Below are positions 193 to 15,811 of a stretch of DNA of 15,811 nt, piece by piece (position 1 is the stretch's first letter; each line of letters starts with the position of its first letter). This DNA comes from Promethearchaeia archaeon (GTDB lineage: Archaea > Asgardarchaeota > Lokiarchaeia > Sigyniarchaeales > SOKP01): the NCBI GenBank assembly GCA_029856105.1, contig JAHQWH010000213.1:1-15811 (forward strand), in the 5' to 3' direction. The notes beneath the pieces are model-generated. The model was not told the DNA's origin. It saw only the letters and a list, made by a program, of their open reading frames with translations, and did not search any database. A program made the position numbers and the translations under genes.

Positions 193-1371
193 ATGAAAAA
201 ACAATTAAAAGCAATTTTAATTATTGGAACAATACTAATAGCTGCAGCTGTTTCTCTATCAATTATATTACCTTATTTTAAGCAATCGCCACAGACCCCT
301 ACTTCTAAGGGATTAGTTTATATTTATGTTGATTCAGCTATACACGATACACTATTTTCAGAAATTACTCAATATAAGCAAGATGTAATTGATCAAGGAT
401 ATTCAGCAGAATTAATCGCTTGGTCATCTAACAATGTATCGGAGTTTAAACAGCACTTAGTTAATACCTCATCTCAAGGATTAATAGGCGCGGTTCTAAT
501 CGGTGACTTACCTTATGCTATGGCAAGGCATTGGGATTCTTTGCATGGTCGATATTGGAATTATCCTTGTGATTTATATCTTATGGATTTAGATGGGAAT
601 TGGTCTGATACAACTATCCCTTATGGGATATTTGATATAGATCAAAACGAACACACAAATGGAACTGGTGATTGGACTCCAGAAATATGGATTGCACGAA
701 TCAGCCCTAGCTCTATCGGAGCAACGGGATTCAATTACACAGCAGCTTATAAAAATTATTTTGACCGCAATTATAAGCTAAGGCATGGTTTTACTAATAG
801 GTCTCACAAAGCATTACTATACATAGATGATGATTGGTCAAGTTATAAAGATGAATGGATAAGCAATTTTACAGCTTATACCGGTAGCGAGATCGATTGT
901 TATTGGAATAATCCAACTACAACAGCTGCAAACTATATGAATAATATATCTACAGTTAATTACGAATTTGTCCATTTGCTTGTTCATTCATGGCCAACTC
1001 AGCATCTTTTTGGACCTCCTTCCAATCTTGGATCTGAGGGGATTTTAACGCACGAAAACATATATGGAAACAGTACTTTACCGTTATTTTATAATTTATT
1101 CGCATGTTTTTCATGTAATTATACCCAAGTTAACAATACTGGAACATATTATCTGTTTTCAGATAATACTTTAACAGTAATTGGGAGTTCAAGAGATGGC
1201 GGTATGGATTTATATCAACCCTTCTATGACAGTTTAAACCAAGGAGCAATAATAGGCGATGCTTTTGTAACATGGTTCCATAATCCTGAAATTGTTAAGT
1301 GGAATAAGGAATTATTATATTATGGAATGACAATATTGGGAGATCCTCTTCTTACGATATACATGACATAA
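193..1371 (+). CDS. Membrane-anchored/secreted peptidase C25 (gingipain)-like cysteine peptidase, clan CD caspase-hemoglobinase fold
   Basis: N-terminal MKK plus hydrophobic helix. Motifs resemble C25: AVLIGDLP, CDLYLMDLDG, PEIWIARI, putative catalytic His (LLVH265SW), putative catalytic Cys (NLFAC305FSC) and C-terminal ILGDP. Many N-x-S/T sequons. Confidence 0.75.
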   Translation: MKKQLKAILIIGTILIAAAVSLSIILPYFKQSPQTPTSKGLVYIYVDSAIHDTLFSEITQYKQDVIDQGYSAELIAWSSNNVSEFKQHLVNTSSQGLIGAVLIGDLPYAMARHWDSLHGRYWNYPCDLYLMDLDGNWSDTTIPYGIFDIDQNEHTNGTGDWTPEIWIARISPSSIGATGFNYTAAYKNYFDRNYKLRHGFTNRSHKALLYIDDDWSSYKDEWISNFTAYTGSEIDCYWNNPTTTAANYMNNISTVNYEFVHLLVHSWPTQHLFGPPSNLGSEGILTHENIYGNSTLPLFYNLFACFSCNYTQVNNTGTYYLFSDNTLTVIGSSRDGGMDLYQPFYDSLNQGAIIGDAFVTWFHNPEIVKWNKELLYYGMTILGDPLLTIYMT

Positions 1372-1394
1372 TTTCAGCTTTAAATTAGTAAGAT

Positions 1395-1430
1395 TTTATT
1401 TATTTTTTTTTTTCAAACTTTTTTTTTTCT
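1395..1430 (+). terminator. Oligo(T) archaeal-type terminator after the C25-like gene
   Basis: Long T runs about 25-60 nt downstream of the stop codon. Inferred from position only. Confidence 0.5.
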
Positions 1431-1476
1431 GTAGTTCCTTAAAACTTTTTTTATCTCTCTTCATGTATTTTAATTA

Positions 1477-2133
1477 ATGGGAAAAAAAAAGAATATAATT
1501 TTAAGTTTTGACTTAGATAATACACTAATCGATAATAGAGAAGGGATCGTTAACTCATTCAACTACGCCTTGAAAAAATATAATCTCCCAGCCCTCGAAA
1601 GAAACAAGATAGAAAAAATGATTGGTACCCCCTTAGACGACATGTTTGAAGAAATTTCTGATATTAATCCAAAAAAGTTATCAACAGCTTTCCGCGAATA
1701 CTACGGAAAAAAAGGGATTTATCAAGCAACGCTATTACCTGGAGTTAGAGAAAAATTAGACGAATTGAAACAAAAATCTTTTACCCTGGGCGTGATTACT
1801 TCAAAAAAGCAAGAAATGGCAGTAAGGATTATCAAGTATTTAGGAATTTTTGGCTATTTCGAATATATCTTGGGCGAAAGCAAAAATATCAAGAGCAAAT
1901 TAGACCCTAATCTGAAATCTTTTTTATTGAATAAATATAAAGGCTTTTTTATCGTGATTATTGGCGACCACCCTAAAGATAAAGCTCTTGCCGAAAATCT
2001 ACGCGCACCCTTCATTGGTGTTTTAACAGGAAACCATTCAGCTGCAGAATTACAACAAAATAGCACTATAAAAACTCAAATTTTAAGTAGCGTTAAGGAG
2101 ATAAAACCTAACTTAATTTATTCCTTATTATAA
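1477..2133 (+). CDS. HAD-superfamily hydrolase (phosphoglycolate phosphatase/Gph-like)
   Basis: Motif I FDLDNTL, motif II ITSK, motif III K (SKLDP), motif IV IGDHPKD, with a helical cap segment. Confidence 0.9.
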   Translation: MGKKKNIILSFDLDNTLIDNREGIVNSFNYALKKYNLPALERNKIEKMIGTPLDDMFEEISDINPKKLSTAFREYYGKKGIYQATLLPGVREKLDELKQKSFTLGVITSKKQEMAVRIIKYLGIFGYFEYILGESKNIKSKLDPNLKSFLLNKYKGFFIVIIGDHPKDKALAENLRAPFIGVLTGNHSAAELQQNSTIKTQILSSVKEIKPNLIYSLL

Positions 2134-2183
2134 AATAACAACATATTAAAAATAGTAAAAAAAGTAAAAAAAAGAATTATACT

Positions 2184-3638
2184 TTATTCCTTCAAATCTT
2201 CGTATATCTTCATAAATTCTTCGGGATTCCATTGTTCCTGCATGTATTTGCCAATTCCAGAACTATCTCTTGGCCCTACAACAACAAAGCAATCAGCTTC
2301 GTCTTCCAAAGCTCCACTTAAACGCGCAGCCATACCTGGAATAATCAAAATACGATGGTTAACCTTATCAAATATTTTAAATTCTTTTGTTGCTTCACCA
2401 ATCGATCCTGCGCTAAATTGGCCTCCTGCGACGGCTGACTCAATTCCTATACCTTCAGAATCTACAACCAACAGATACGCGTCTAAATTCGCCCCTTTTA
2501 TGTCTATTTCAACCGGAATTTTTGTTAGACGGTAATTTGAAGTCACAAAAATAGGAGAGGTCTCTGTTGGCTCTCCAATTTCGTATATTCCAGGATCTGC
2601 AGCGGGATAAATGCGAGGATCGCTAAAAATACTCTGCCTCAACGTCATCATTGCCAGAAGAGCCCAAATATCTTCTTTTCTTTTACCAGTATGCAAAACA
2701 ATGAGGTTAGTATCAATTGACTCCATGATCACTCCCATAATTAATTCTTGGTATTGATGCTCCCAGAGTTCCTTATCATCGTCAGTTTTCACTTGACTCC
2801 AATAAGCAGCGGGAACCCCCATAACAGGCCAACCTGCATTCATGTCTTCTTTATCAATCGCAGAAATTCTCAATTGCATTATATTATCGTAAGTTAATGC
2901 TACATTGCCTGGACCAAAAACGGTCATAGCGTCTAATACTATACCTGTCACGCCTAACTTCTGTAAGGTGGCACTTAAGGACAGCAATTCGTCTAAATCG
3001 CTTGAAACGGCCGCTACAGGCAAATCATTCTCTACGGCAAATTTTCCAATTTGTTCCCATGAATCTTTGGTTGCGGCGTAGAGTAATGGTTTTTTATCTT
3101 TAATTTCAGCAGCAGCAGCTAACAAAATATCTGGATTCAAACACGCTAACATTACGGGAAGATCTGAAACCTCTGTTAGTTTCGAAGCAGCGAGTTTAAA
3201 TTGCTCAGCGTCTCCAGATACGCATCTTAGAGCAATACCGCTAACTCTAAGAACATCTCCCATTCTTTCGAGTTTTACTTCGCTTAAATATTTAGCAATT
3301 TCTTCTAAATCATTTTCATCGTCGGCGATTTGTATAAAAATTTGTGTTTCATTATAATACGTGAGCTGATGGCGATTAAGAACTTCTTCACCCCCAACTA
3401 TACATTTTCTTTCTCCTATTCCAATAAATACTGGTTTTTGTGGAGGTGTCGTAATTTTTATTAACTTCTCGCGTTTTTTTGCCTGTTTAGGATCTTGCAT
3501 AAGGTGCGAACAGTCCTGCACCACAACGTTTCTTTCAAGCAAGTCTGTTGCAAAAGCCATGCATGTATCTCTACCACAGTCTTTACAATTACTTTTATCT
3601 AAAAGCGCATAGATCTCTAATGGACTCGGTCTTGCCAT
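2184..3638 (-). CDS. cdhE: Acetyl-CoA decarbonylase/synthase subunit gamma (corrinoid iron-sulfur protein large subunit)
   Basis: N-terminal [4Fe-4S] motif CKDCGRDTC-x16-C, then GGEEVL-RH, and a C-terminal corrinoid domain (SPIFVTSNYRLT, LLVVDSEG, LIIPGMAARL, VVVGPRDSS). SD-like GGAGAAAGTGA precedes the ATG. Confidence 0.95.
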   Translation of the reverse strand: MARPSPLEIYALLDKSNCKDCGRDTCMAFATDLLERNVVVQDCSHLMQDPKQAKKREKLIKITTPPQKPVFIGIGERKCIVGGEEVLNRHQLTYYNETQIFIQIADDENDLEEIAKYLSEVKLERMGDVLRVSGIALRCVSGDAEQFKLAASKLTEVSDLPVMLACLNPDILLAAAAEIKDKKPLLYAATKDSWEQIGKFAVENDLPVAAVSSDLDELLSLSATLQKLGVTGIVLDAMTVFGPGNVALTYDNIMQLRISAIDKEDMNAGWPVMGVPAAYWSQVKTDDDKELWEHQYQELIMGVIMESIDTNLIVLHTGKRKEDIWALLAMMTLRQSIFSDPRIYPAADPGIYEIGEPTETSPIFVTSNYRLTKIPVEIDIKGANLDAYLLVVDSEGIGIESAVAGGQFSAGSIGEATKEFKIFDKVNHRILIIPGMAARLSGALEDEADCFVVVGPRDSSGIGKYMQEQWNPEEFMKIYEDLKE

Positions 3639-3781: not shown

Positions 3782-5062
3782 TCAAAATGACTTCTTTTTG
3801 GGTTTAACTTTTAATAGTATCAAGGGAGCTAATGCCAAGGTTGATAGCACTCCGGCGATTAAAATTAAGGTCTCAATCGGAATAAAATCAGACAAAAATG
3901 TTCCTAATGGAATGAAAATTACACAAGAAAACGCGTATGCTAGTTTTAAACATTGGAACAAAAAAGTTTTGTGTTTTCCGTTGTTCGCTATTGTCATCAT
4001 TAAAGAAATATAATTCAATAAAAATATGCCTGCCAAGACTTGAATTATACCTTGGACGATCATCATAAGGAAGAAATCAGAGAAAGCCATTACGAAAGTT
4101 AGAAAAATGTAAATCACTACTGTAATAATGATAATCTTCTTTCTTTTTTTTATTTTAAATGTGCTATCAAGAGCGGAATTTTTCTTGGAAATTTTTTGCC
4201 CAATAATCCATCCTGAAATATTTAGTAATACAAATACGATATAAGATATAGAATATAAGCTAAAACTCTGTTGTCCAAATTTATTAAAAATCCAAGAAGA
4301 GAACGGAAATTGGTACAGTTTATCGCTCCAGATTAATAAATATGATAAGAATAGAAAGATAAAATTAAATGGCGAAACTTTCGGCGAATTCATAACTTCA
4401 TTTTGAAGATCTTTTTTTTTTTGGAAACTATTACCGAAATCTTTTAGGAAAATGATCGATACAAGCATGGGTAGAGATAATAAAACTCCAATTAAAAAAA
4501 ACATATTCCAGTGATTTAAATCAAAAAGATCGCTTAATACAAAAAGAAAAACAATAGAAGGTATAAACGAGCCGATATTTGAGGATATATTGATAGTCAC
4601 TAAATTATTATCCTTGATAATTTCATTTGCAGAAAGATCGATTATCATTTTACTGATTCCTACCTTTATAATTCCTTGACTTAGTAGATTTAAAGCTAAA
4701 AATAAACCAAAAATAGGTAAGTAGTTGCTTGAAAAGATTGATACAAAAAAGCTAATTAGAAAAAATAGTATCGAGAATGAGATTATAATCTTTTTGTTTT
4801 TCACAAATTTATCGAATGAAAATCCTAAAACGGGGTCTATGAATAATACTGAAAAAGCAAGAATTTGTATGAACGCCAGTTCACTCCTTACCACTGAACG
4901 TATGTTTAGCAAATACAAGGGTAGATAGACCGCTAAATAAATCTGTATTATGCTTAGCGTGAAATAAATTATAAAAAAGCCGATGTAATTCCGTTTTTTT
5001 ACTCTTGCTATTTCTTTTAAGTCCAACACTAAAATATTCGAGCTGGTTTTTAAACACTTCAT
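3782..5062 (-). CDS. Major facilitator superfamily transporter (about 12 TM helices)
   Basis: Two blocks of about 6 hydrophobic segments separated by a hydrophilic loop. Motif A-like GFSFDKFVKNKK follows TM2. The true start may be the internal GTG/TTG near 5030. Confidence 0.8.
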   Translation of the reverse strand: MKCLKTSSNILVLDLKEIARVKKRNYIGFFIIYFTLSIIQIYLAVYLPLYLLNIRSVVRSELAFIQILAFSVLFIDPVLGFSFDKFVKNKKIIISFSILFFLISFFVSIFSSNYLPIFGLFLALNLLSQGIIKVGISKMIIDLSANEIIKDNNLVTINISSNIGSFIPSIVFLFVLSDLFDLNHWNMFFLIGVLLSLPMLVSIIFLKDFGNSFQKKKDLQNEVMNSPKVSPFNFIFLFLSYLLIWSDKLYQFPFSSWIFNKFGQQSFSLYSISYIVFVLLNISGWIIGQKISKKNSALDSTFKIKKRKKIIIITVVIYIFLTFVMAFSDFFLMMIVQGIIQVLAGIFLLNYISLMMTIANNGKHKTFLFQCLKLAYAFSCVIFIPLGTFLSDFIPIETLILIAGVLSTLALAPLILLKVKPKKKSF

Positions 5063-5096
5063 TATATCGGTTAGATTTTTAATTTTATTTTATTCT

Positions 5097-5110
5097 CTTA
5101 TAAATATAAA
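5097..5110 (-). promoter_or_regulatory. Putative TATA box of the MFS gene
   Basis: Minus strand reads TTTATATTTATAAG about 35-48 nt upstream of the ORF start. The AT-rich background limits confidence. Confidence 0.4.
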
Positions 5111-5144
5111 ACGGGTTTATTAAACTACACAATAAATCGTTTTA
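5107..5144. repeat. Imperfect inverted repeat TAAAACG-GG-TTTATT N9 AATAAA-T-CGTTTTA
   Basis: Arms read directly from the sequence. It adjoins the putative MFS TATA box. Confidence 0.5.
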
Positions 5145-5208
5145 CGATGTTTTAGAAAGCTATTATGATCAGTAACAGAAAATTATAGATATCTTCCATC
5201 ATACTTAC

Positions 5209-5276
5209 AAAAAAAAGAGAGAAAATATGGTTTTCCCGCATATTGGGTATTACAAACACCCAAGCGGGAGAAACAT
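5209..5276 (-). terminator. GC-rich bulged stem-loop followed by U-tract (structured RNA element or terminator)
   Basis: Minus strand: AUGUUUCUCCCGC-UUGGGUGU-UUGUA-AUACCCAA-UAU-GCGGGAAAACCAU, followed by AUUUUCUCUC and U8. Confidence 0.65.
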
Positions 5277-5306
5277 TTAAGGAGTAGCATCAGCAGTTCC
5301 TGGCAT
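5277..5306 (-). CDS. Putative 9-aa micropeptide MPGTADATP
   Basis: ATG CCA GGA ACT GCT GAT GCT ACT CCT TAA, preceded by GAGGTAAAGGTAAG (SD GAGGT 9 nt upstream). A TATA-like element lies upstream and a hairpin plus U-tract downstream. Confidence 0.45.
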   Translation of the reverse strand: MPGTADATP

Positions 5307-5353
5307 CTTACCTTTACCTCAAATTATTTTGATGAAATATAAAGTGAATATTG

Positions 5354-5363
5354 TATATATAAG
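5354..5363 (-). promoter_or_regulatory. Putative TATA box (CTTATATATA) for the micropeptide/hairpin transcript
   Basis: About 48 nt upstream of the ATG. An archaeal start site about 25 nt downstream would leave a short 5'UTR containing the SD. Confidence 0.45.
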
Positions 5364-5527
5364 CCTGCTATCTTCAACCAACGGTTTCTAATAGCATTAT
5401 ACTGTCTCACAATGTTTATTCATAAATAGATATAAAAACATAGAGAAAAAAGCAAAAGATAAAGATAAACTTGGATATTTTAAACAAAAAAAACCGATTA
5501 ATCATTAAATCTAAAAATTTATGGCAT

Positions 5528-5542
5528 GAAAAAGTATTTAAG
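5528..5542 (+). promoter_or_regulatory. BRE plus TATA box (GAAAAAG-TATTTAAG) of the 1200-aa gene
   Basis: Purine-rich BRE-like element directly 5' of a TATA-like sequence, about 58 nt upstream of ATG 5600. Confidence 0.5.
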
Positions 5543-5599
5543 TTCTTATGCTAAATAAATTCATAATTCTAACGCGTATTTATCTATAAAATTGAATAT

Positions 5600-8500
5600 A
5601 TGGCAAAATTAAATATCGATTTTTTAATAGAAACTCCAATCAAAAAAATTCTTGAAAAGATTGATTACTTATTTCGTGAACTTCTTCAAGAGATTGAATC
5701 CTATCTCAATATTCAAGTAATTTACCCTAAAATAAACATTATTCTAAAAAATGAAACATCAATTTCAGGTGTTGCTGATAATATTTTTTCCATAGGAGTT
5801 GAAAGATCTTATAATAATGATATTCTCAGTATTAAAATATATTCAGATTTTTATCAATACATCCAATTTATTATGCTCCGGGAAGCGTATAAATGTTTTA
5901 TTCCTCTCTTCGCCAATCAAATTAAAATAATTGAAATTTTCATATATCAAAAGGTATTGATCGATCTCAATAAACTAAAATCTAGCAATGAATGGAACCG
6001 GCTCATACGAGATAAATTGGTTAATTATGAGTTCATTTCGGGTGAGTTTGATCGTTTAGAGAATTTTTTGAAACGTGAAAGTACTGAGAATATTGATAGT
6101 CCCTTTATATTTTTCTTTAAATATATTAGAAAAAATATCCAAATTATTGGTGAAAAAGAACAAAATTTTTACGACACATTTTTCAAGGAATTTTTATTAG
6201 TTTCCTCAAAATCATTATTCAACGATGAAATAATAGAAACAATAAGAGTTCTTGATAAAATCTTCAATCATGTAAAATATTATTCTGCATTGTTGGACTA
6301 TCAAGATTATTTTACCTTATTTAAAGAAAAAGGAGTGATTGAAACTAATCTCAAAAAATTTACTGAAAACATGCAATGGATTAAAAATTTTAGTTCTATA
6401 TCTCCAAGTTATAAAATAAACTGGCCGTCATTAAATATACTCTCAATAAATTGCTGCATTAAATTCAACCCCATTATTAGGAGAATCGAAATACTCAAAT
6501 TCATTAATGAGCTGCCTTTTTTTGTTCTTCTTAAGGAATCCAGAAATAGTTTCGGATTCGAAATTGATGGATATTTTGTATTACCTCAAATTTATATTGA
6601 TGACTTAAAAATTTATCTCGAGAAGTTTAGAGATAATGGATATGCTCTTCATATTAAATTGACCATAGTTGAAAAATCTGAAGCCTTTGTTAACTTAAAT
6701 TATTTTCGAGAATATCACGACAAAAAAACGATTGTTAATAGAAATCACAAGTTCTATGACAGAAAATATGAATTAGATTTTTCGATTGCTTATAGTAAAG
6801 AAGTAATTATGCCTAGTTTGTCTCTTCTCGATTGGTTAATAATTGATAGAATTCGTTACTTTTCACAAACGGGATTTAATTTCGAAAGAAGAGCTGGAGC
6901 TATTAAGTTGTTAAAGACTGATCTTATTAACGAAATTATTAGTCAAAGGAAATTTATTACTGACTTAAAAACAAATTTGTTAATCATTCATTCCTCGTTA
7001 AAACTCAGGAATAATTTTCTTGAGTTTTTAAAAACAAATGAATCCTTTGGATTCTTTTACATTAGAAACATACTTAATGATTATACCTTTACTTTAAACT
7101 TAATTAAAGATATTTTAACTAGAAATCCTTCTATTAACAGTGTCTTCAAATTTCGTGAATATTTTAAAAAACAAGGAGTCTCGAATTCAATCGAAAATAA
7201 CATTACATTTAAAAATTCAACGATTAAAAAGGCGATTTTTAACCATTTCCTACCGTTATATTTTGAATCAAAGGAGAATTTTGAGGAAGAAATTAGCAAA
7301 TATACTAGTTTTTTTAAAGTAATTAGTTCTTGTTACGATTTGAAGATCTTCAACCTTCAATCTATTCGCACGATTGTAAAAGACAGTTCTTTGATAAACA
7401 CTATTTATAAATCTAAGGAAGATAAATTAATGAGTTCATATGAGAGCTATCAATTATCCGATCTAACATATAAATTAATTGAGGAAAAGCTAGATTATTA
7501 CCTAAATAGCAAACCACCTGTAATTAAACCAAATTTAATAGGAAATATTATAGTTTCAATGGTTCAAGTTTTTATTGTTTTATTAAAAAATAACGAGGAA
7601 ACTATAGAAAATCTTAAAAAAATATCCTTTATATCAAAAAGAATGTGGAGCAGTTCTGGAGAAATACTTAATATTGTATTATTAATTCCATACTTAAGTA
7701 GCAGTGAAAAGAGGACATTTATTTCATTGTTGATTAATATTTTTAAAGAAAATCTGATTAGTATTAAAAGATATTTGTGGAGCCACTTTCAACAAGCATT
7801 TTCAAGGAAAGATTTTTATGATTTAGAACAAAAAGAATTCTTTTATACTAAAGATCTTTTTAGGCAATTTTTCCTAAATGTGAGAAGCATTCTTGGTGAA
7901 GTACAAAAACCACTCTCAGAAACCCAAACTATACAGCAAAATATATTTTGGTCAAAAGAAGAAGACATTTCTCATTTAATTAAATCTGTCGAGGATCGTA
8001 TTAGAGGGGAGCATGTAGATTTAAGCGTTGATAAGTTAAATGATCTTGTCGAATTCAATAATAAATTAAAAGAAAATTTGTTAAATCTTAGCAAGTTTAA
8101 AGAATCCCAAGAAAAGTTTTTCTTCAAAAACTACATTAAATCAATCAATTTTATACCCTCGTTTCAGAAATTCGGAATGAATCAATATTTCTTGTATTTT
8201 TATCCTACCGATATCAATCAAATTGATTTTAAACTTTTAATGAATAACTCTTTCCAATCTATTAGTTATCCCGCTCAGATTGATAACTCTAATTCTTTCT
8301 TATGCCAATATATTTTTCCTCTTCGCAATCCTGGTATATCTCCGTATTTAAATTGGTTAACTAAATCGAAAAAAATCGTCAGAGAATATTGTTTATTTTT
8401 CGTTAAAAAATTGTATCAAATACTGCATTTCAATTACAATTTAAGTTCAGATGGTTGGGATCTCGACCCAAATCGATTCAAAATCTACTTTCAAAACATA

Positions 8501-9202
8501 TTATTTAACCCCGATTATAAGGTTCAAATTCCAGATATGAAAGAATTTAACATTGGAGACTTGAACGTTTCAGATTATTTTGGTACCGATTCCCTCGAAT
8601 TTAAGGCGTTATCTCAAATTTACAATAGGCAATCGTTAGATATTAAATCGTATTTAACGAGGCGATATTTCACTCTTATCAATCATATAACTGAGCTATT
8701 GAAAAAAAGGTTGATTTTTCCCTATATCTCCGTTAAAAACTTAGATTTGATAGAAGAAATCACTATTATTTTACCGAATGTTAAACAAGAGCTAAACGAG
8801 ACAATAATTAAAATCTTCAGTTTTTTCAATGTTGGTTTCATTTATGAAGTAGAAGGGGAGTATTATATTCACGGATTTGACGAAGTGATAAAATTTGAGA
8901 ACGGCCTGATGATAAAATTACGCTTACCAGATTGTCAACTCGACGAATTTGAGAAGCTTTTCGATCTAATTTTTGAATATTTGGAGATCGATCATTACCT
9001 TGTTTTAAACGATTTAGTCGACGGAGAAAACTTAATTAGATCAACATTTAAAGAGTTGAAATTCTTAGAGACTTACAACCCTTTAACCAACCTAATTTGG
9101 AATGAAAAAGATAAAAAATGGCGGAACCATAAATTATTTAACGAAAATTTTGAACCTGTTTACCCAAACTTATTTTACGGAAAGGATAAATACGATTTAT
9201 AG
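5600..9202 (+). CDS. Large (1200 aa) hypothetical cytoplasmic protein, probably tandem degenerate Lrp/AsnC-like (wHTH plus RAM/ACT-like) modules
   Basis: Long ORF with no TM helices. Recurrent Lrp-type linkers (SPSYKINWPSLNI, SINFIPSFQKFGM, LIFPYISVKNLDL) are followed by beta-alpha-beta patterns ending in xxP. Lrp-like first helix LSLLDWLII. The CDS is certain; the domain call is inference. Confidence 0.7.
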   Translation: MAKLNIDFLIETPIKKILEKIDYLFRELLQEIESYLNIQVIYPKINIILKNETSISGVADNIFSIGVERSYNNDILSIKIYSDFYQYIQFIMLREAYKCFIPLFANQIKIIEIFIYQKVLIDLNKLKSSNEWNRLIRDKLVNYEFISGEFDRLENFLKRESTENIDSPFIFFFKYIRKNIQIIGEKEQNFYDTFFKEFLLVSSKSLFNDEIIETIRVLDKIFNHVKYYSALLDYQDYFTLFKEKGVIETNLKKFTENMQWIKNFSSISPSYKINWPSLNILSINCCIKFNPIIRRIEILKFINELPFFVLLKESRNSFGFEIDGYFVLPQIYIDDLKIYLEKFRDNGYALHIKLTIVEKSEAFVNLNYFREYHDKKTIVNRNHKFYDRKYELDFSIAYSKEVIMPSLSLLDWLIIDRIRYFSQTGFNFERRAGAIKLLKTDLINEIISQRKFITDLKTNLLIIHSSLKLRNNFLEFLKTNESFGFFYIRNILNDYTFTLNLIKDILTRNPSINSVFKFREYFKKQGVSNSIENNITFKNSTIKKAIFNHFLPLYFESKENFEEEISKYTSFFKVISSCYDLKIFNLQSIRTIVKDSSLINTIYKSKEDKLMSSYESYQLSDLTYKLIEEKLDYYLNSKPPVIKPNLIGNIIVSMVQVFIVLLKNNEETIENLKKISFISKRMWSSSGEILNIVLLIPYLSSSEKRTFISLLINIFKENLISIKRYLWSHFQQAFSRKDFYDLEQKEFFYTKDLFRQFFLNVRSILGEVQKPLSETQTIQQNIFWSKEEDISHLIKSVEDRIRGEHVDLSVDKLNDLVEFNNKLKENLLNLSKFKESQEKFFFKNYIKSINFIPSFQKFGMNQYFLYFYPTDINQIDFKLLMNNSFQSISYPAQIDNSNSFLCQYIFPLRNPGISPYLNWLTKSKKIVREYCLFFVKKLYQILHFNYNLSSDGWDLDPNRFKIYFQNILFNPDYKVQIPDMKEFNIGDLNVSDYFGTDSLEFKALSQIYNRQSLDIKSYLTRRYFTLINHITELLKKRLIFPYISVKNLDLIEEITIILPNVKQELNETIIKIFSFFNVGFIYEVEGEYYIHGFDEVIKFENGLMIKLRLPDCQLDEFEKLFDLIFEYLEIDHYLVLNDLVDGENLIRSTFKELKFLETYNPLTNLIWNEKDKKWRNHKLFNENFEPVYPNLFYGKDKYDL

Positions 9203-9331: not shown

Positions 9332-10783
9332 ATGGCACCCGAAGATTTTAACTTTGATAAGTTCGACACCTTATTTCACCCTCAACACATTGCGTTTGTA
9401 GGGGCGAGTGAAAAATCGAGATTTGGTGCGATGCTTTACTTACCTGCCTTTAAAAATTCAAAATGGGCAGATACATTTTACCCGGTTAATCCAAAGTACG
9501 AAAATGTGCTTGGTTGGAAGTGTTATTCTTCAGTACTTGATATTCCTTATCCTATAGATACAACTTATATCTCAGTGAAAACAAAACATATTCCTGCTGT
9601 TTTAAAAGAGTGCGTACAGAAAGAAACCCCTTGGGTCGTAATATTTGCTTCCGGATTTTCTGAAACCGGAGATTCATCTGGATTAAAATTAGAGCAAGAA
9701 TTAAAACAAATAATCAAAGGTACGAACACAAGAATAATAGGTCCTAATTGTTTAGGCCCATATAACGCCACCGAAGGAATGGCGTTTACGTTTAGCGCTA
9801 AAAACAATACTCCTGGTTCTATTTCGTTTATGTCTCAATCTGGAGGACACATGAGCCAATTATTAGATGTAGGATATAAGCGCGATCTCAGGTTCAGGTA
9901 TGGAGTATCGTTTGGAAACCAGTTAGATTTAAATTGTGTTGATTTTTTGAAACATTTCCGTAGAGATCCGAAAACTCGCGTTATTTCAGCTTACCTAGAA
10001 TCGTTTGGCTCAGCAATGGGTAACGATTTCTTTTTAGAGCTCAAAAAAGCAACAAAAATTAAACCCGTTATTATTTGGAAGGGTGGATACACGAAAGATG
10101 GTTCTCGAGCAGCTTTTTCGCACACAGGTGCTATAGTAAGCGATCTAAGATTATGGCGATCAATGGCTAAGCAAACGGGGGCGATAATCGTTAAAGACAA
10201 CGAGGAATTTTGGAATGCAATGAAAACCTTCGAATTGTTATTCCCAAAATATATACCAGGTGGAAAAAAAGTAGGAATAATAACTCCTGGTGGGGGATCT
10301 AGCGTAAACACAACAGATCTATTCAACTTTTTTAATTTAAAAATCCCAGAATTAACATTAGAAACTCAGAAGAAAATCAGTGAGATTTTACCATATGAAA
10401 ATGTAAACATTAGAAATCCCGTAGATTTGGGAGCCTTAGGGTTTGTTGTGGATGTATTTGCTGAATGTATAGAAATTGTAGCCACTGATCCTAACATTGA
10501 CATTGTAATAATTCCATTATGGCCGCATTTTATATATAACCATGTATTCAAACGTATGATAAAAATCCAGAAATCTACTTTGAAACCATTCGTTTTTTGT
10601 ATGCCCAGTATAGCTGATTCTTCTGAACTTGCGCAACGATTTTCTTCTGTCAAAAAAATTCTACACAAGGAGAGAGTTCTGTATTTTTTCTCGTTAAGAG
10701 ACGCGGCGAGAAGTATATCGCTTTATTGCGATTATATTGAATTTTTAAAATCGCACAACTACGACATTTCAAATGAAAAGTAA
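9332..10783 (+). CDS. ADP-forming acyl-CoA synthetase alpha-type subunit (CoA-binding protein, AcdA family)
   Basis: IAFVGAS, YPVNP, ASGFSE, RIIGPNCLG, SQSGG, SFGNQLD, YLES, WKGG, phospho-His motif AAFSHTGA and NPVDL. No ATP-grasp beta domain is fused. Confidence 0.9.
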   Translation: MAPEDFNFDKFDTLFHPQHIAFVGASEKSRFGAMLYLPAFKNSKWADTFYPVNPKYENVLGWKCYSSVLDIPYPIDTTYISVKTKHIPAVLKECVQKETPWVVIFASGFSETGDSSGLKLEQELKQIIKGTNTRIIGPNCLGPYNATEGMAFTFSAKNNTPGSISFMSQSGGHMSQLLDVGYKRDLRFRYGVSFGNQLDLNCVDFLKHFRRDPKTRVISAYLESFGSAMGNDFFLELKKATKIKPVIIWKGGYTKDGSRAAFSHTGAIVSDLRLWRSMAKQTGAIIVKDNEEFWNAMKTFELLFPKYIPGGKKVGIITPGGGSSVNTTDLFNFFNLKIPELTLETQKKISEILPYENVNIRNPVDLGALGFVVDVFAECIEIVATDPNIDIVIIPLWPHFIYNHVFKRMIKIQKSTLKPFVFCMPSIADSSELAQRFSSVKKILHKERVLYFFSLRDAARSISLYCDYIEFLKSHNYDISNEK

Positions 10784-10791
10784 AAAAGGCA

Positions 10792-11082
10792 CTAAACCTT
10801 TTTTATAATTTCTTTTAAATATTGTTTCATAAAATGTCTTTGAATACTACAATAATCTAATTTTTGATTATTCGTTAACGAATTTAATTCTTTATTGTTT
10901 AACAAGAAAAAGTGGACATCTATAATTTTTCCGTAAACTTTATTCATTTTATTGAAGATTTCTTGTTGTTTTAAGTGAATAAAGTCTTTTTCCTCAAAAA
11001 CTGGCAGATTATATAAATCGTTTGCTTTAATACTATCAAAAGTTCCTATAGAATAATTGATATTAGCTTTTCCTGAACTCAA
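10792..11082 (-). CDS. Small hypothetical protein (96 aa, TTG start)
   Basis: Fills the gap convergent to the acyl-CoA synthetase gene. SD-like GTGAT lies 5 nt upstream of TTG, with a TATA-like element near 11107-11115. No recognisable motif. Confidence 0.55.
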   Translation of the reverse strand: MSSGKANINYSIGTFDSIKANDLYNLPVFEEKDFIHLKQQEIFNKMNKVYGKIIDVHFFLLNNKELNSLTNNQKLDYCSIQRHFMKQYLKEIIKKV

Positions 11083-11363
11083 TTTTTATCACACTAATAT
11101 TATTAATTTATATATCTAAACCTCAAGTTTTTTGAAACTGTAGTGTTGTTTCTAATTTTGTCGGTAATCTGCAGTAATACCTACTAAATTGTCTATTTTT
11201 GAGGGTAGTTAATGCTATAATCTCAATTTTGTATATACTATTGTTTTTCGTATATTAAATTTAGAGCAAATTATATGTTAAGGGGTTAATAATGAGGGGC
11301 TAAAACCTAATATAATTCTGGAGGCAATATTTAAAATAAATTAAATAAATTATCTGAATTATT

Positions 11364-12380
11364 ATGGGTTTTATTTCTGGATTGAAAGGAGTGTTTAAAA
11401 AACGTATTTACATATTTATTATATTTTCCTTTATTCTTACTTGGGTATTGATATTAACTAACTCTTACTTGAAAAGCGAGTTACTTAGATCGTTTATAAT
11501 TATTTTCGGGGGAGGTTTTTTATTCTTTAACGTAATTTTATTTTGTGTATCCTTTTTTAAGAAACTTGATGATTTGAACAAATGGTTTTTCATCATCTGC
11601 TTTATAATTGCGATCGTTCTAAATGTATTTCTCTCTGATACAATTTTTAACCCAACATCTAATTTCTATTTACTAATTCTCCTTAATGCAAATCTGTTTT
11701 TTACTTCTTTTTTTGCCTTCAAATTATGTATGGATTCTGCTACTAAAGTGGATGATTATTTGTATAAAAATAAAAGATCTAGAATAGTAATTCGGATTGT
11801 AGAATTTTGCGTTTTTGGTTTTTTAGTTTGGTGGTTTTTTAGAATCACGATAATCTTTTTCAGTAATACTCCATCTGATTTGTTCACTTATGTAATCCGA
11901 ATTTTACAAATAATGTTTTGGGTAAACATAGTTTTAATGGTAGTCGTGCTATTTCGATTGATTATAACGAAAAAGTTATCGGCGTTCATTACTTTATTTT
12001 TCCTGTTAACTCTCTTCTACGCTTTATATATCCTTTTTGATTTATTGTTTGGAATATTTTTTAGTTCTGAATCGGGAGGCCCAATTTACGCTGTTATATC
12101 GTTTATTATTGACATTTTATTATTTTTATACATCTTAGGGATCGTTTATAGTAGAGTTGATTATATACAAGCTAAATTAAAATTATTTAAAGTCGATACA
12201 ATTGCTTTATTTCTGATAACAATGAAAATTTATGCTCAGGTTTCAAAAACCTTCGCAATAACCATTTCTGTAGAATTACAAATCTTCCAAGCAACGTGGT
12301 TATTTCTGATATTCATGTTTTTTAACCTAATATTCGGAATTCACTCAATTTTCACTCACAAGTATGGAAAAGGTAAGTAA
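11364..12380 (+). CDS. Polytopic membrane protein of unknown function (about 9-10 TM helices)
   Basis: Alternating hydrophobic segments with short basic loops. No family motif recognised. Confidence 0.8.
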   Translation: MGFISGLKGVFKKRIYIFIIFSFILTWVLILTNSYLKSELLRSFIIIFGGGFLFFNVILFCVSFFKKLDDLNKWFFIICFIIAIVLNVFLSDTIFNPTSNFYLLILLNANLFFTSFFAFKLCMDSATKVDDYLYKNKRSRIVIRIVEFCVFGFLVWWFFRITIIFFSNTPSDLFTYVIRILQIMFWVNIVLMVVVLFRLIITKKLSAFITLFFLLTLFYALYILFDLLFGIFFSSESGGPIYAVISFIIDILLFLYILGIVYSRVDYIQAKLKLFKVDTIALFLITMKIYAQVSKTFAITISVELQIFQATWLFLIFMFFNLIFGIHSIFTHKYGKGK

Positions 12381-12483
12381 AAGAATATATTAATAATCTA
12401 ACAAATTTTTAAGTAGAATCTTTAAATAAAAAAACGAACTTTAGGTTTTAGTATTTTAAATTAAAAAGAAAAAGAAAATTTAT

Positions 12484-12999
12484 CTAATACATCTCTTCTT
12501 TAGTAAATAACAAACTGAAGCAACCGTAGAATACGCCGTTTACAGCTCCGCTTATCAAAAAGGAGATTAATACTAAGATTGGATCTGCTACAGGGATACC
12601 ATAATACATTAAGGTTGTTGAGCTTATGAAGGCTAATATTCCCAAAGCTACAGCACTTATCATAGCTGTAATCATCCACCCCCCAAAACTACCCCCTTTA
12701 TTCTCTCCCATTCGTCCTGCGATTATTGATGCAACAAAGGGAGAAACAATGAATCCAATACTTTGAATTAGCATAGGAACAGTCATTCCCAAGGTAATTT
12801 GAACAAAGAACGAACTTTCAGACCCCGGCATACTAACTAGAGGCCCGAAAAAAATCAGCAATATTATTAATGGATCACTACTAATATCACTAAAAAGAAG
12901 GTTTAAATTAGTACTAATAGTTTCCGCTATTATTACAAACAGAAAATTTAGACCTATCAACGCAAGCAAACTAAATCCTAGAGCTTTACCTAATCCCAT
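12484..12999 (-). CDS. Small Gly-rich membrane protein of unknown function (about 4-5 TM helices)
   Basis: Hydrophobic helices with small-xxx-small motifs (GGSFGG, GAVNG, GVFYG). Confidence 0.8.
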   Translation of the reverse strand: MGLGKALGFSLLALIGLNFLFVIIAETISTNLNLLFSDISSDPLIILLIFFGPLVSMPGSESSFFVQITLGMTVPMLIQSIGFIVSPFVASIIAGRMGENKGGSFGGWMITAMISAVALGILAFISSTTLMYYGIPVADPILVLISFLISGAVNGVFYGCFSLLFTKEEMY

Positions 13000-13058
13000 A
13001 TTTGTCAGACTCTTTTTTTCAAATTATATATCTTAATTAATTTACTTCTCTTATGTAT

Positions 13059-13078
13059 ATAGCTATTGTAATAGCTAT
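13059..13078. promoter_or_regulatory. Palindromic putative operator ATAGCTATT-GT-AATAGCTAT
   Basis: Perfect 9-bp inverted arms with a 2-nt spacer, each containing the palindrome ATAGCTAT, in a divergent intergenic region. Confidence 0.55.
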
Positions 13079-13197
13079 TTAAATTTATTTAACTTAAAAC
13101 ATAAAAGTCATAATTTAATAAACATAAAAAATAATCGTGACAAAGGTTTTCAATCAATAAATTTCAATAGTTTATTAATAATTATGAAGACAAGGTT

Positions 13198-14241
13198 ATG
13201 AAGAAGAATCAAAATAAATTTCCAATTGGTAAGCTTAAACATAAGTTTCTCTTAAAGATGTTAAAGAATTTTGTTTCTAACACTCACTTAAAAGATGACA
13301 GGGTCATTATGGGGTCTAGTATTGGAGAGGATGCTGCCGTTATTGATATGGGCGATAATTACTTAGTTGCAAAGACCGACCCAATTACTTTTGCTACAGA
13401 CGCTATAGGATACTACGCCGTAAATGTCAATGTAAACGACATTGTGTGTACTGGAGCTACTCCGAAGTGGTTTCAATCAACAATTTTACTACCTAAAAAA
13501 CATACAGATGAATATTTGATTGAAAACATTTTCAAAAACATTCATGATACTTGCAAATCTTTAGGGATTTCTGTAATAGGCGGCCATACTGAGATTACTT
13601 CAGACCTTACTAGACCAATTATTGTTGGCTCTCTTCTTGGCGAGGTTGAAAAGGATAAATTAGTTTTGACATCTGGAGCAAAAGCAGGAGACTCAATAAT
13701 ACTAACCAAGGGGATATTTATCGAAGGCACATCCATTATAGCAAGAGAAAAGGAGAATATATTAAAGGATAAAGGGTACAGCGTCGAATTTATTGAAAAA
13801 TGTAAAGGTTACCTATATAATCCTGGTATCAGCGTCTTCAAAGAAGCCTTATTATCTAACGATAATTTTAAAATTAATTCTATGCACGACCCTACTGAAG
13901 GTGGTCTATTTTGTGGCATCGCGGAAATGGCAATTGCCTCTAATTTAGGGGTTTTAATCGAAAAAACCAAAATAAATGTTTTACCAGAACCAACGGAGCT
14001 AAGTAAAGTTTTTGATTTAAATCCGTATAACACAATATCTTCCGGTTCTCTTTTAATTTCAATTGAAGAAGAATTTACTGCAGATTTAATTAATATATTG
14101 AAGAAAAACGACATCAATTCTGAATTGATTGGCAAATTTACTTCGAAAAAAGAAAACTATTTGGTAATAGACGATAACAATAAAAAGACGCGAATGTTTT
14201 ATACAGAAACTGACGAAATCACAAAACTATTTAATTTTTAA
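13198..14241 (+). CDS. AIR synthase-related (PurM-like superfamily) ATP-dependent protein, HypE-like but lacking the HypE C-terminus
   Basis: GKL, IGEDAAV, KTDPIT, NVNDI, GGHTE, MHDPTEGG and ISSGSLL motifs. The protein ends TDEITKLFNF. Confidence 0.88.
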   Translation: MKKNQNKFPIGKLKHKFLLKMLKNFVSNTHLKDDRVIMGSSIGEDAAVIDMGDNYLVAKTDPITFATDAIGYYAVNVNVNDIVCTGATPKWFQSTILLPKKHTDEYLIENIFKNIHDTCKSLGISVIGGHTEITSDLTRPIIVGSLLGEVEKDKLVLTSGAKAGDSIILTKGIFIEGTSIIAREKENILKDKGYSVEFIEKCKGYLYNPGISVFKEALLSNDNFKINSMHDPTEGGLFCGIAEMAIASNLGVLIEKTKINVLPEPTELSKVFDLNPYNTISSGSLLISIEEEFTADLINILKKNDINSELIGKFTSKKENYLVIDDNNKKTRMFYTETDEITKLFNF

Positions 14242-14400: not shown

Positions 14401-15811
14401 ATTACGAATAAAGAATTAAGTACCATTCTGAAATCCATAGGAGAAAAAGCGAAAGGGAAAGAATTAACTCTTAAGATAAATTCCCATGTCTTTTTTGATA
14501 TTTTAAAAAGCAAAGGAGCTTTATTTAGTGATTTTAAAGAAAGGATTATAAAAGAATGGGAACAGTTCAAATTAAAAAATCAAAAAAGAGTAATTCAAAA
14601 AACTTATAGTACGTTTTTTTTTCAATATTTTCATAACTATTTAGAATTTTATTTAGAAAACTTTTGCGGATTTGATACAAATTCCTTAAAATTAATTGCT
14701 AAGGAGAAGATTTCTGACGATAACTTATTTTTAGAGTATAATTATTATTTATCCCTCGAAGAGATGGAATCATTTAACGAATTTGCTGAAAATTTTAAAG
14801 ACACTTCAGATGGAGTTACCTCCCCGTTCGGATATTTATATTTAGTGGTCTCAATATTAGGAGTAATTCTGAGAAAACTAACTGGAGAAAAATTTTATAT
14901 TGTTTTAGACGCGGCTGTTATAAAAAACGGCGATAGTAGCAATACTCTAACTTCGTTGATAGTTATTAAAAATAGTAATGATGAGTTGTTTGATAATTAC
15001 TATTCTTTTGCTCTTTACTACTTTCTGAAATACTTTGAAAATGTTCCAGAAGCATATTCAGACAAACTATTAAAAGGTAGGGATAGGTTATATGAAATTG
15101 CTTTAGAGGAATACTCTTTTGCTAAAGAAAAACTCGTAGATTTATTATATTATTTCTATAAGAAGTGTAATCTGCTTCAGAACTTTTCGCCTGTATTAGA
15201 TTTTTTAAATTTCGTCAATTCAAGAGTAGAAGACTCAATTTTTCCTAAACTAGATATAATAAAAAAAGAGTTCCTACAGAATTTTGACTATACAAATGAG
15301 AAAAAGAACACATTTATTAGAATTTTCGATTACATTGACAAGAAAGCCACATTATACTCAACATTCCAGGCTAATAATTTACCGTCTCAAAAAAATCAAT
15401 TTAATTTATTTCTATTGTATATGAAATATTACTTTGGTAGTGGAAGTTTAGAAGCTTTGGAAGTAAGCGATTTATTATTTTTACCAGGAGAGTTTAGGAA
15501 CAGATTAAATAAACTTAATAAGACATTGGATGACCCAATTAATGCTAAAAATATCAAGGAAATCCAAGATTTTATGGACATTTTTTCAATTTTAACAAAT
15601 GTAGAACATCCAAATGTATTTTTTGAAAAAATCTTTAAAAAAAATATTTCACAGATTAATTACGACTTTTTAAGAACATTTTTACGAAGCTTGAATATAA
15701 GTATTACTCGTTTAATTGCCCATGAAAACAAGGTTTTATCTGAAGACCCAAATAACGAGCTTTTAACTTTTAAAATAGTTGTTGACCACATATGCCGAAT
15801 GCTCTACACCC
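14401..15811 (+). CDS. Hypothetical protein, 470 or more codons, truncated by the window end (not in the supplied ORF track)
   Basis: Translated by hand, the frame is stop-free from 14398 to the end (ITNKELSTILKSIGEK...TSPFGYLYL...YFGSGSLEALEV...VDHICRMLYT). The first ATG is at 14764, so the start is uncertain. Confidence 0.85.
   Translation, partial: MTNKELSTILKSIGEKAKGKELTLKINSHVFFDILKSKGALFSDFKERIIKEWEQFKLKNQKRVIQKTYSTFFFQYFHNYLEFYLENFCGFDTNSLKLIAKEKISDDNLFLEYNYYLSLEEMESFNEFAENFKDTSDGVTSPFGYLYLVVSILGVILRKLTGEKFYIVLDAAVIKNGDSSNTLTSLIVIKNSNDELFDNYYSFALYYFLKYFENVPEAYSDKLLKGRDRLYEIALEEYSFAKEKLVDLLYYFYKKCNLLQNFSPVLDFLNFVNSRVEDSIFPKLDIIKKEFLQNFDYTNEKKNTFIRIFDYIDKKATLYSTFQANNLPSQKNQFNLFLLYMKYYFGSGSLEALEVSDLLFLPGEFRNRLNKLNKTLDDPINAKNIKEIQDFMDIFSILTNVEHPNVFFEKIFKKNISQINYDFLRTFLRSLNISITRLIAHENKVLSEDPNNELLTFKIVVDHICRMLYT

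Follow-up and report, generated by a model that had tools for sequence, protein, structure and literature searches.

An Asgard archaeal cassette that may be a peptide-sensing circuit is described here from a stretch of 15,811 nucleotides (the window; contig JAHQWH010000213.1), part of a metagenome-assembled genome of the Promethearchaeota/Lokiarchaeia type. The window is AT-rich, with a GC content of about 25-40% across 500-base windows. Its positions 3782..5062 (minus strand) hold a gene for a transporter of the major facilitator superfamily (MFS) of 426 amino acids. The open reading frame (ORF) at 5600..9202 (plus strand) encodes a soluble protein of 1,200 residues, named BIG here, which occurs as a single copy in this genome. 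The 537-bp spacer between the two genes contains a micro-gene module (5198-5440, minus strand) that has the same direction as the MFS gene and is divergent from the BIG gene. A first-pass annotation of the window had placed and oriented the three genes in this way, and the placement was borne out.

Architecture of the micro-gene and its copies

The module reads as a compact gene on the minus strand. A TATA-like box (5354..5363), read from the sequence and conserved in alignments A2 and A6, is its putative promoter element. A Shine-Dalgarno site, TTGAGGT (5316..5322), follows 9 nt before the ATG, and its GAGG is invariant in 13-14 loci. The ORF comprises nine codons and a stop (5277..5306, with the ATG at 5306); it encodes MPGTADATP and its frame is preserved across loci. 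A bulged GC-rich hairpin (5230..5274; dG -22.2 kcal/mol) begins 3 nt after the stop codon. Beyond the hairpin, a run of eight T residues (5209..5216) lies within a conserved CCATATTTT...T-run motif, which is invariant in alignment A3 and is also found in the paralogous units and long-precursor forms described below. T-runs are an archaeal termination signal. Immediately after the T-run lies a 22-nt block (5187-5208, minus strand), GTAAGTATGATGGAAGATATCT, that is conserved even where the orientation of the MFS gene differs (L010, L011, L013, L027).

The micro-unit is more than a chance feature. The hairpin is unusually stable (z -5.4), and none of 200 shuffled sequences was equally stable. Its upper stem shows compensatory substitutions in an alignment of 13-14 related loci, and in seven pairs both partners have changed. 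Covariation reaches a score of 0.43, compared with 0.18 in shuffles, none of 500 of which scored as high, and slid controls do not exceed 0.13. The ends of the ORF, ATG-CCn and CCn-TAA, are invariant in the 13-14 related loci, and the two Pro codons vary at their third positions among three synonymous codons. ORF length varies by whole codons only (8, 9 or 10); the hairpin carries indels of 1-3 nt. Within the unit, conservation is lowest in the interior codons. The intergenic region matches no Rfam covariance model at E up to 1, and ARAGORN detected neither tRNA nor tmRNA genes in it. Judged by its sequence, the unit is a complete, translated gene made up of a TATA box, Shine-Dalgarno site, nine codons, covarying hairpin and T-run. 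The predicted peptides of the window type form a family, M-P-G-x5-P. Many peptides of the clade carry one Cys, and the window peptide has none.

The module is not confined to the window. A second copy encoding the same peptide lies on contig C158 (12037-12164; L083:1385-1629). The duplicated block is 243 bp long (window 5198-5440), is 93.5% identical over 246 nt, and takes in the promoter together with some 75 nt that precede it. The two copies agree throughout the 30-nt ORF, whereas their hairpins have diverged at the top. A covariance model built from the unit (R1) scores 137 bits on the window unit and 122 bits on the C158 copy. The C158 copy is flanked by convergent, unrelated genes that encode a DUF7064/DUF7065 protein and an unassigned protein of 455 amino acids.

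This genome holds at least ten such micro-genes. At least eight further nine-codon genes are found on contigs C98 (7993-8307), C157 (1763-1858 and about 220 nt further on), C191 (35397-35496), C219 and C134 (loci L084-L089). Six micro-genes are of an M-P-G-Q type with their own conserved promoter, and are arranged singly or in tandem behind paralogues of a protein of 343-404 amino acids. This protein has a sub-threshold match to DUF885 and an intact HE..GHH motif. No relation between BIG and the DUF885-like neighbour of the paralogous micro-genes was found by hhalign. The DUF885-like proteins that accompany the M-P-G-Q micro-genes are possibly a peptidase arm of the system.

Linkage of the micro-gene to BIG and the transporter

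At E 1e-10, 63 of the 68 genomes sampled from a single GTDB family encode BIG, and the protein was not found in any of 232 genomes from outside this family in the phylum. The micro-gene accompanies it. R1 gave 14 strong matches (99-137 bits), every one just upstream of a BIG homologue, and it also matches weakly at the same position where BIG identity has dropped to 35-50%. In diverged form, micro-genes adjoin BIG in more than 20 such distant loci. These diverged units are of the same gene type, with a Shine-Dalgarno site, ATG-CCn, 8-12 codons, a hairpin and a CATATTT...T-run tail. ORFs of 8-12 codons adjoin BIG in more than 30 loci, and in most of about 60 Asgard loci. A regular expression for micro-units matched 43 times in 1.25 Mb of loci, nearly always beside BIG, and 4 times in shuffled DNA. 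Run across the class, R1 was too narrow as a DNA-level model and recovered no more than a sub-clade of the genus.

The transporter was followed in 53 loci that contain a full-length BIG gene and at least 1.8 kb on both sides of it. An MFS homologue lies within 1 kb of BIG in 31 of these, either upstream and divergent (17 loci), upstream and co-directional (8) or downstream and convergent (6). The window genome (3.66 Mb) contains only two homologues of the window MFS, and the second of these (C14) has no micro-unit nearby. Proximity in 31 of 53 loci, in three arrangements, excludes chance, and the possibility raised by the first-pass annotation that the adjacency was coincidental is thus not borne out. 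The window order (MFS and the micro-gene pointing one way, BIG the other) recurs in the distant loci L030, L035, L036, L040, L052, L059, L063 and L069. It persists in distant lineages even without the synteny of acyl-CoA synthetase and CdhD, the delta subunit of acetyl-CoA decarbonylase/synthase. The linkage survives rearrangement, which argues for a functional tie between the micro-gene, MFS and BIG. Neighbourhood analysis of BIG homologues hence upholds the proposed three-part linkage of micro-peptide gene, MFS gene and giant protein, and we regard its conservation across one GTDB family of Asgard archaea as close to certain. BIG is the constant partner of the micro-gene across loci.

The membership of the transporter in the major facilitator superfamily is clear from Pfam MFS_1 (48.5 bits, above the gathering cut-off of 33.4) and from a two-half transmembrane pattern, in which hydropathy marks about 12 hydrophobic segments arranged 6+6 around a central loop. 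No subfamily could be assigned: NCBIfam gave a weak match to TIGR00880 (drug-resistance MFS superfamily), and no match to PDB sequences was found. The MFS gene starts 147 nt beyond the T-run of the micro-unit and has its own TATA-like box.

The form of the peptide gene differs with the presence of the transporter. A leaderless micro-ORF was identified in 27 of the 31 MFS-adjacent loci, although 4 of these 27 require ATT to be accepted as the start codon. Six of the 22 loci with no MFS gene within 1 kb (L045, L047, L061, L070, L073 and L078, of which L073 is ambiguous) have instead ORFs of 36-45 codons in the same divergent position. These longer ORFs encode a basic N-terminus, a hydrophobic stretch of 15-20 residues, a Gly-rich core and a Pro-stop end, which together resemble a signal peptide joined to a short core, and cleavage at the predicted signal-peptidase site would leave 8-9-mers in most of them. 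The signal-peptide-bearing genes of 36-40 codons lie upstream of BIG on the minus strand at L045:7575-7691, L047:7543-7656, L061:7715-7825, L070:5967-6089 and L078:4688-4804. The long precursor genes end in the same terminator-like tail as the short micro-genes. No long form stands beside an adjacent MFS gene (Fisher p about 2e-4, uncorrected for kinship).

Two further loci with no MFS gene within 1 kb, L037 and L038, encode 46-codon precursors with three repeated 8-residue Cys-containing cores (L037:7595-7735 and L038:7498-7638, minus strand). The precursors are followed by a gene for a YcaO cyclodehydratase (L037:5605-7374, minus strand; Pfam 132.9 bits), and a YcaO gene is also found near the precursor in L070. 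The position of YcaO behind the repeat precursors makes it probable that the peptide is heterocyclised in the L037/L038 lineage. Between L037 and L038 the same residue differs in all repeats (Asp vs Lys). The short and long forms are most simply read as a peptide destined for export, with the MFS transporter as the presumed route for the forms that have no secretion signal.

Predicted folds of BIG and its control region

BIG has neither a signal peptide nor a transmembrane segment. Searches of Pfam, NCBIfam and PDB-sequence profiles returned no match for it, and 37 homologues likewise had no Pfam or NCBIfam match at E up to 1. An AlphaFold2 model of BIG built with the 37 homologues has a mean pLDDT of 70.6, with good values for residues 1-770 and poor values for residues 860-1000 and the tail. 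Foldseek gave no significant match for the whole model or for the N-terminal domain; the rows for RND pumps, with TM values of about 0.07, are meaningless.

The N-terminal domain (BIG residues 11-206; 5630..6217, plus strand) is predicted to be a zincin domain of the M1/thermolysin type that lacks zinc ligands, and it reaches a pLDDT of 85 and a pTM of 0.86 when folded alone. All of its top-50 VIA structure matches are zincin peptidases. These include M1 aminopeptidases (Z 7.6-8.5; best 9daz, 170 residues aligned), thermolysin (Z 7.7, 172 aligned) and DUF885 (Z 5.7). The inactive M1-like domain of TAF2 (6hqa) matches with Z 6.8. BIG has a conserved R94-E95-A-Y97 at the position of the HExxH helix, and a near-invariant Q117 stands 19 residues past the position of the second His, in the place of the Glu of X18-E. 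From the position of the helix and the X18 spacing, R94, E95, Y97 and Q117 appear to be equivalent to the HExxH and Glu positions. None of the 37 homologues has a His in helix 82-98. The HExxH and the third ligand are replaced in every BIG homologue, and the N-terminal domain therefore cannot be a zinc peptidase. The domain was found only in BIG proteins: its 168 matches among 1.84 billion representatives are all proteins of about 1,200 amino acids or fragments.

The remainder of BIG contains modules predicted to resemble Lrp/AsnC proteins, with a helix-turn-helix (HTH) and a RAM-like ferredoxin fold. Module A (residues 205-370; 6212..6709, plus strand) has VIA matches to 2p5v (Z 7.0, 147/156 aligned), 2cg4 (Z 6.5) and 8q90 (Z 6.5), and whole Lrp/AsnC chains (2p5v, 2cg4, 8q90, 2e7w) align to residues 203-370 over 143-147 of about 150 residues with Z 6.5-7.0. 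Module B (residues about 580-740; 7337..7819, plus strand) has ACT/RAM matches over residues 654-735 (Z 7.6-8.0). The top structure-only match of BIG is NirDL (4czc_A), with Z 14.5 and 286/305 residues aligned to residues 209-762 of the model, and modules A and B are predicted to pack like the two halves of NirDL. Module C (residues 999-1144; 8594..9031, plus strand) matches AhbA/B (4czd_A) with Z 6.3 and ACT-like structures with Z 6.5-7.1. Module C and the C-terminal tail are the most conserved parts of BIG. Conservation is highest in the tail (residues 1141-1200; window 9020-9199), which has a mean pairwise identity of 0.67 and a pLDDT below 50 and may be a docking motif for a partner.

The first-pass annotation had called BIG Lrp-like. 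The term holds for the predicted fold, through NirDL and the Lrp/AsnC chains, but not for sequence, where no family match was found. A fourth Lrp-like module that had been proposed at residues of about 780-950 was not confirmed; the pLDDT is below 50 there. Comparison of the four putative modules with hhalign revealed no sequence similarity among them (probabilities of at most 2%). According to the model, BIG holds at least three HTH+RAM-like modules, and it is plausible that the protein is a dead-peptidase domain fused to Lrp-like modules and a candidate peptide-sensing regulator.

The micro-gene and BIG have a control region in common (5364..5599), which shows 76% mean column identity and long invariant blocks in 7 loci and is a putative operator. 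Such conservation (blastn identity 78-87%) is unusual for an AT-rich spacer. The region contains an inverted repeat at 5407-5417/5436-5446, and relatives have palindromes just upstream of the TATA box, for example AATCGC-N14-GCGATT. The palindromes near the TATA box are candidate operators.

Tests for co-variation between the peptide and its putative receptor had been suggested in the first-pass annotation. Peptide similarity follows BIG similarity over 30 loci (Mantel r 0.64, p 0.0003), which linkage of the genes would lead one to expect. Once whole-protein identity is accounted for, the N-terminal domain of BIG is the only part that keeps a positive partial correlation with the peptide (r 0.19, p 0.002). 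Among 12 close loci the correlation of peptide identity and BIG identity was not significant (Spearman r 0.22, p 0.08). As a hint of specificity, the co-variation of the N-terminal domain and the peptide is suggestive only.

In close relatives BIG and MFS are far more diverged than their neighbours, and their alleles are reshuffled. The window and L008 are 87-90% identical in CdhD, MFS (88%) and acyl-CoA synthetase, and 73% identical in BIG. Compared with L004, the window is 95% identical in CdhD, 86% in BIG and 57% in MFS. The flanking CdhD and acyl-CoA synthetase are 87-95% identical to both L004 and L008. These mosaic alleles suggest recombination or diversifying selection within the cassette.

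The conserved neighbours in the rest of the window (193-3638 and 9332-14241) encode a C25-like peptidase, a HAD hydrolase, CdhD, an ADP-forming acyl-CoA synthetase-like protein and an AIR-synthase-family (HypE/ThiL/SelD-like) protein. The order of these genes is kept within the genus and is absent from distant BIG loci. At the end of the window (14401-15810, plus strand), homologues from other loci align over 467-474 residues with the frame read from 14401. Because they align from there, the gene must start well upstream of the ATG at 14764; the stretch upstream of this ATG where it should begin contains no ATG, GTG or TTG.

A candidate peptide-sensing circuit and its alternatives

The reading we favour, with confidence that falls a little short of even, is that the cassette is a circuit of an exported peptide, its exporter and a cytosolic peptide-binding regulator. 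The free-standing micro-gene would make a leaderless 9-residue peptide, and likely removal of the Met would leave a peptide bracketed by Pro at both ends. The adjacent MFS transporter would export it. Cytosolic BIG would sense the peptide, probably through its catalytically dead zincin domain, and its three or four Lrp/AsnC-like HTH+RAM modules would act on the control region held in common with the micro-gene. Such a loop may result in autoinduction or peptide signalling. Export by MFS, re-uptake, peptide binding by BIG and DNA binding are the steps that we infer. The peptide-signalling module put forward by the first-pass annotation thus fits the comparative data, above all the signal-peptide forms where MFS is missing, while its binding and transport steps are conjectural.

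Several observations weigh against this circuit. The cassette has no importer to bring an exported peptide to cytosolic BIG. BIG has no sequence match to DNA-binding or ligand-binding families, the single-module Z scores of 6.5-8.5 make certain only a common fold and not homology, and the best structural match, NirDL, is an enzyme and not a regulator. As NirDL and AhbA/B show, proteins with an Lrp fold are not necessarily DNA-binding. A peptide gene was not detected at 4 of the 31 MFS-adjacent loci, nor at 9 of the 22 loci without a nearby MFS. Leaderless peptides also occur without MFS within 1 kb, in 5 of these 22 loci (L025, L029, L031, L033, L067). The partial Mantel test is weak, and phylogeny can readily produce artefacts in it. 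Finally, YcaO in three loci means that the peptide may be a modified natural product and not a plain signal.

This last point leads to the strongest rival, which we consider unlikely: the cassette makes a ribosomal peptide natural product (RiPP, microcin-like), for which the micro-gene is the precursor, MFS the exporter or self-protection pump, and BIG a pathway regulator, scaffold or immunity protein and not a quorum-sensing receptor. YcaO lies directly behind the Cys-containing repeat precursors of L037 and L038 and near the precursor of L070, many peptides of the clade have their single Cys, and the peptide core diversifies fast. The layout also recalls the microcin C operon, in which mccA, a gene of 7 codons and among the shortest known, is followed by a hairpin terminator and linked to the MFS exporter MccC. 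However, neither the window nor most loci contain a modifying enzyme, the neighbours being CdhD, HAD and the ADP-forming acyl-CoA synthetase-like protein, and no MccB (ThiF/E1-like) adenylyltransferase domain was found among the scanned window ORFs. A Cys, Ser-rich or other core typical of RiPPs is absent from the window peptide. The partner that stays constant is a giant, regulator-like protein, with no catalytic motif and a peptidase-like domain devoid of metal ligands.

Less probable still is a micro-peptide that stays within the cell, where it would act on zincin-fold proteins (BIG and the DUF885-like peptidases) as an allosteric ligand or decoy, with MFS moving some other substrate, such as peptides or amino acids, under BIG in a feast/famine type of control. 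The zincin-like domain of BIG would suit this role, as would the six or more M-P-G-Q copies behind DUF885-like proteins whose HE..GHH motif is intact. Nutrient sensing is the classical role of Lrp-type regulators, and the lack of an importer in the cassette would be expected. The signal-peptide forms at loci where MFS is missing, however, indicate that the peptide leaves the cell, and MFS is linked to BIG only along with the micro-gene; the second MFS paralogue has no micro-gene nearby.

We give little credence to the view that BIG has nothing to do with the peptide and is an enzyme or structural protein (for instance in a siroheme-decarboxylase-like use of the Lrp fold), so that the neighbourhood would reflect shared regulation or a hitch-hiking small RNA or terminator element. 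In its favour are the matches to NirDL and, for module C, to AhbA/B, the absence of sequence evidence for DNA binding, and the occurrence of the micro-unit family at other sites in the genome. But the high NirDL score reflects the simultaneous alignment of two modules, and no sequence similarity or active-site motif could be shown. Moreover, neither rearrangement into three layouts nor a fall in BIG identity to 35% has parted the micro-gene from BIG, the codon pattern of the micro-gene shows that it is translated, and Rfam has no match to it.

Least credible is a cis-acting leader peptide or attenuator of the cmlA/cat/erm type, in which translation of the 9-codon ORF, with slow termination at Pro-stop, would melt the hairpin and control read-through into MFS. 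The 9-codon leader of cmlA attenuates an MFS exporter gene, and the window layout of 9-codon ORF, hairpin and MFS gene is similar; the Pro-stop is conserved, a terminating ribosome would open the lower stem of a hairpin that begins 3 nt after the stop, and the unit is upstream of and co-directional with MFS in 17 loci. Yet in at least 14 loci it is convergent with MFS (as in L010, L011, L013, L016 and L027) or downstream of BIG with no gene to control (as in L014, L020 and L060). The C158 copy lies between convergent, unrelated genes, the unit and MFS have separate promoter-like boxes with the MFS start 147 nt past the T-run, and the predicted secreted precursors of 36-46 codons belong to the same peptide family. 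The variable orientation and the duplicate without a downstream gene argue that the micro-unit, which differs from cmlA in its own promoter and terminator, is autonomous and has a trans-acting product. Leader-peptide control of the transporter, an option in the first-pass annotation, is accordingly disfavoured.

Returning to the exported peptide with a cytosolic regulator, the nearest parallel in logic for the leaderless forms is the leaderless communication peptide (LCP)-RopB system (SIP/RopB) of Bacillota, where an ORF of 8-9 codons is the mature leaderless peptide, is divergent from the gene of its cytosolic receptor, and has its own promoter with a receptor binding site (PMC10518010). The leaderless ORFs of 8-12 codons beside BIG in more than 30 loci share this architecture, with BIG as the presumed receptor. 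The differences are considerable. RopB is a tetratricopeptide repeat (TPR)-type RRNPPA receptor, and BIG lacks both a TPR and any sequence match. LCPs are hydrophobic, the Asgard peptides rich in Gly, Pro and polar residues, and the Asgard cassette has a linked MFS gene and an archaeal host, whereas a dedicated LCP transporter is not known.

For the leader-bearing forms, the closest logic is that of the classical RRNPP systems (Rgg-SHP, PlcR-PapR, Rap-Phr, AimR-AimP), in which a secretion signal and a short C-terminal core are encoded beside a cytosolic receptor, as would be the case for the 36-45-codon forms of L045, L047, L061, L070 and L078. BIG does not belong to RRNPP(A): it has no TPR or RRNPP family match, its structural matches are to other folds, and an Opp-type importer is not linked to it. 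Its modules A, B and C are predicted to share the HTH and RAM-like ferredoxin fold of Lrp/AsnC regulators, NirDL and AhbA/B, but they have no HTH_AsnC or AsnC_trans_reg Pfam match and are fused in one chain with long helical inserts. Likewise, the N-terminal 200 residues have the predicted catalytic-domain fold of M1 aminopeptidases, thermolysin and TAF2, with the HExxH and downstream Glu of M1/M4 replaced by R-E-x-Y and Q. The protein parts of the cassette are not homologous to those of LCP-RopB, RRNPP or microcin C, whose gene-hairpin-MFS layout it recalls.

Communication by peptides is well established in Gram-positive bacteria and in the phages that infect them. We found no description of it in archaea in the literature, and no publication on the cassette of micro-gene, MFS and BIG. 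The complete genes of 8-12 codons reported here are conserved and multi-copy in these genomes and are missed by annotation pipelines. A bolder proposal, which we put forward only tentatively and would sooner doubt than accept, is that the cassette represents the first ribosomal-peptide cell-to-cell signalling in Archaea. One Asgard family would export Pro-bracketed peptides of 8-9 residues, by an MFS pump if leaderless and by Sec if leader-bearing, to a receptor of new architecture that combines a dead M1-type domain with a single-chain Lrp-like array. The peptides, the N-terminal domain and the pump would diversify fast in a pherotype-like manner, and the paralogous peptides with their DUF885-like peptidases would form a second arm. 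If this is true, a dead peptidase domain has been turned into a ligand sensor in BIG, and the prokaryotes most closely related to eukaryotes have a peptide language of their own, whose parts are unrelated to the bacterial systems.

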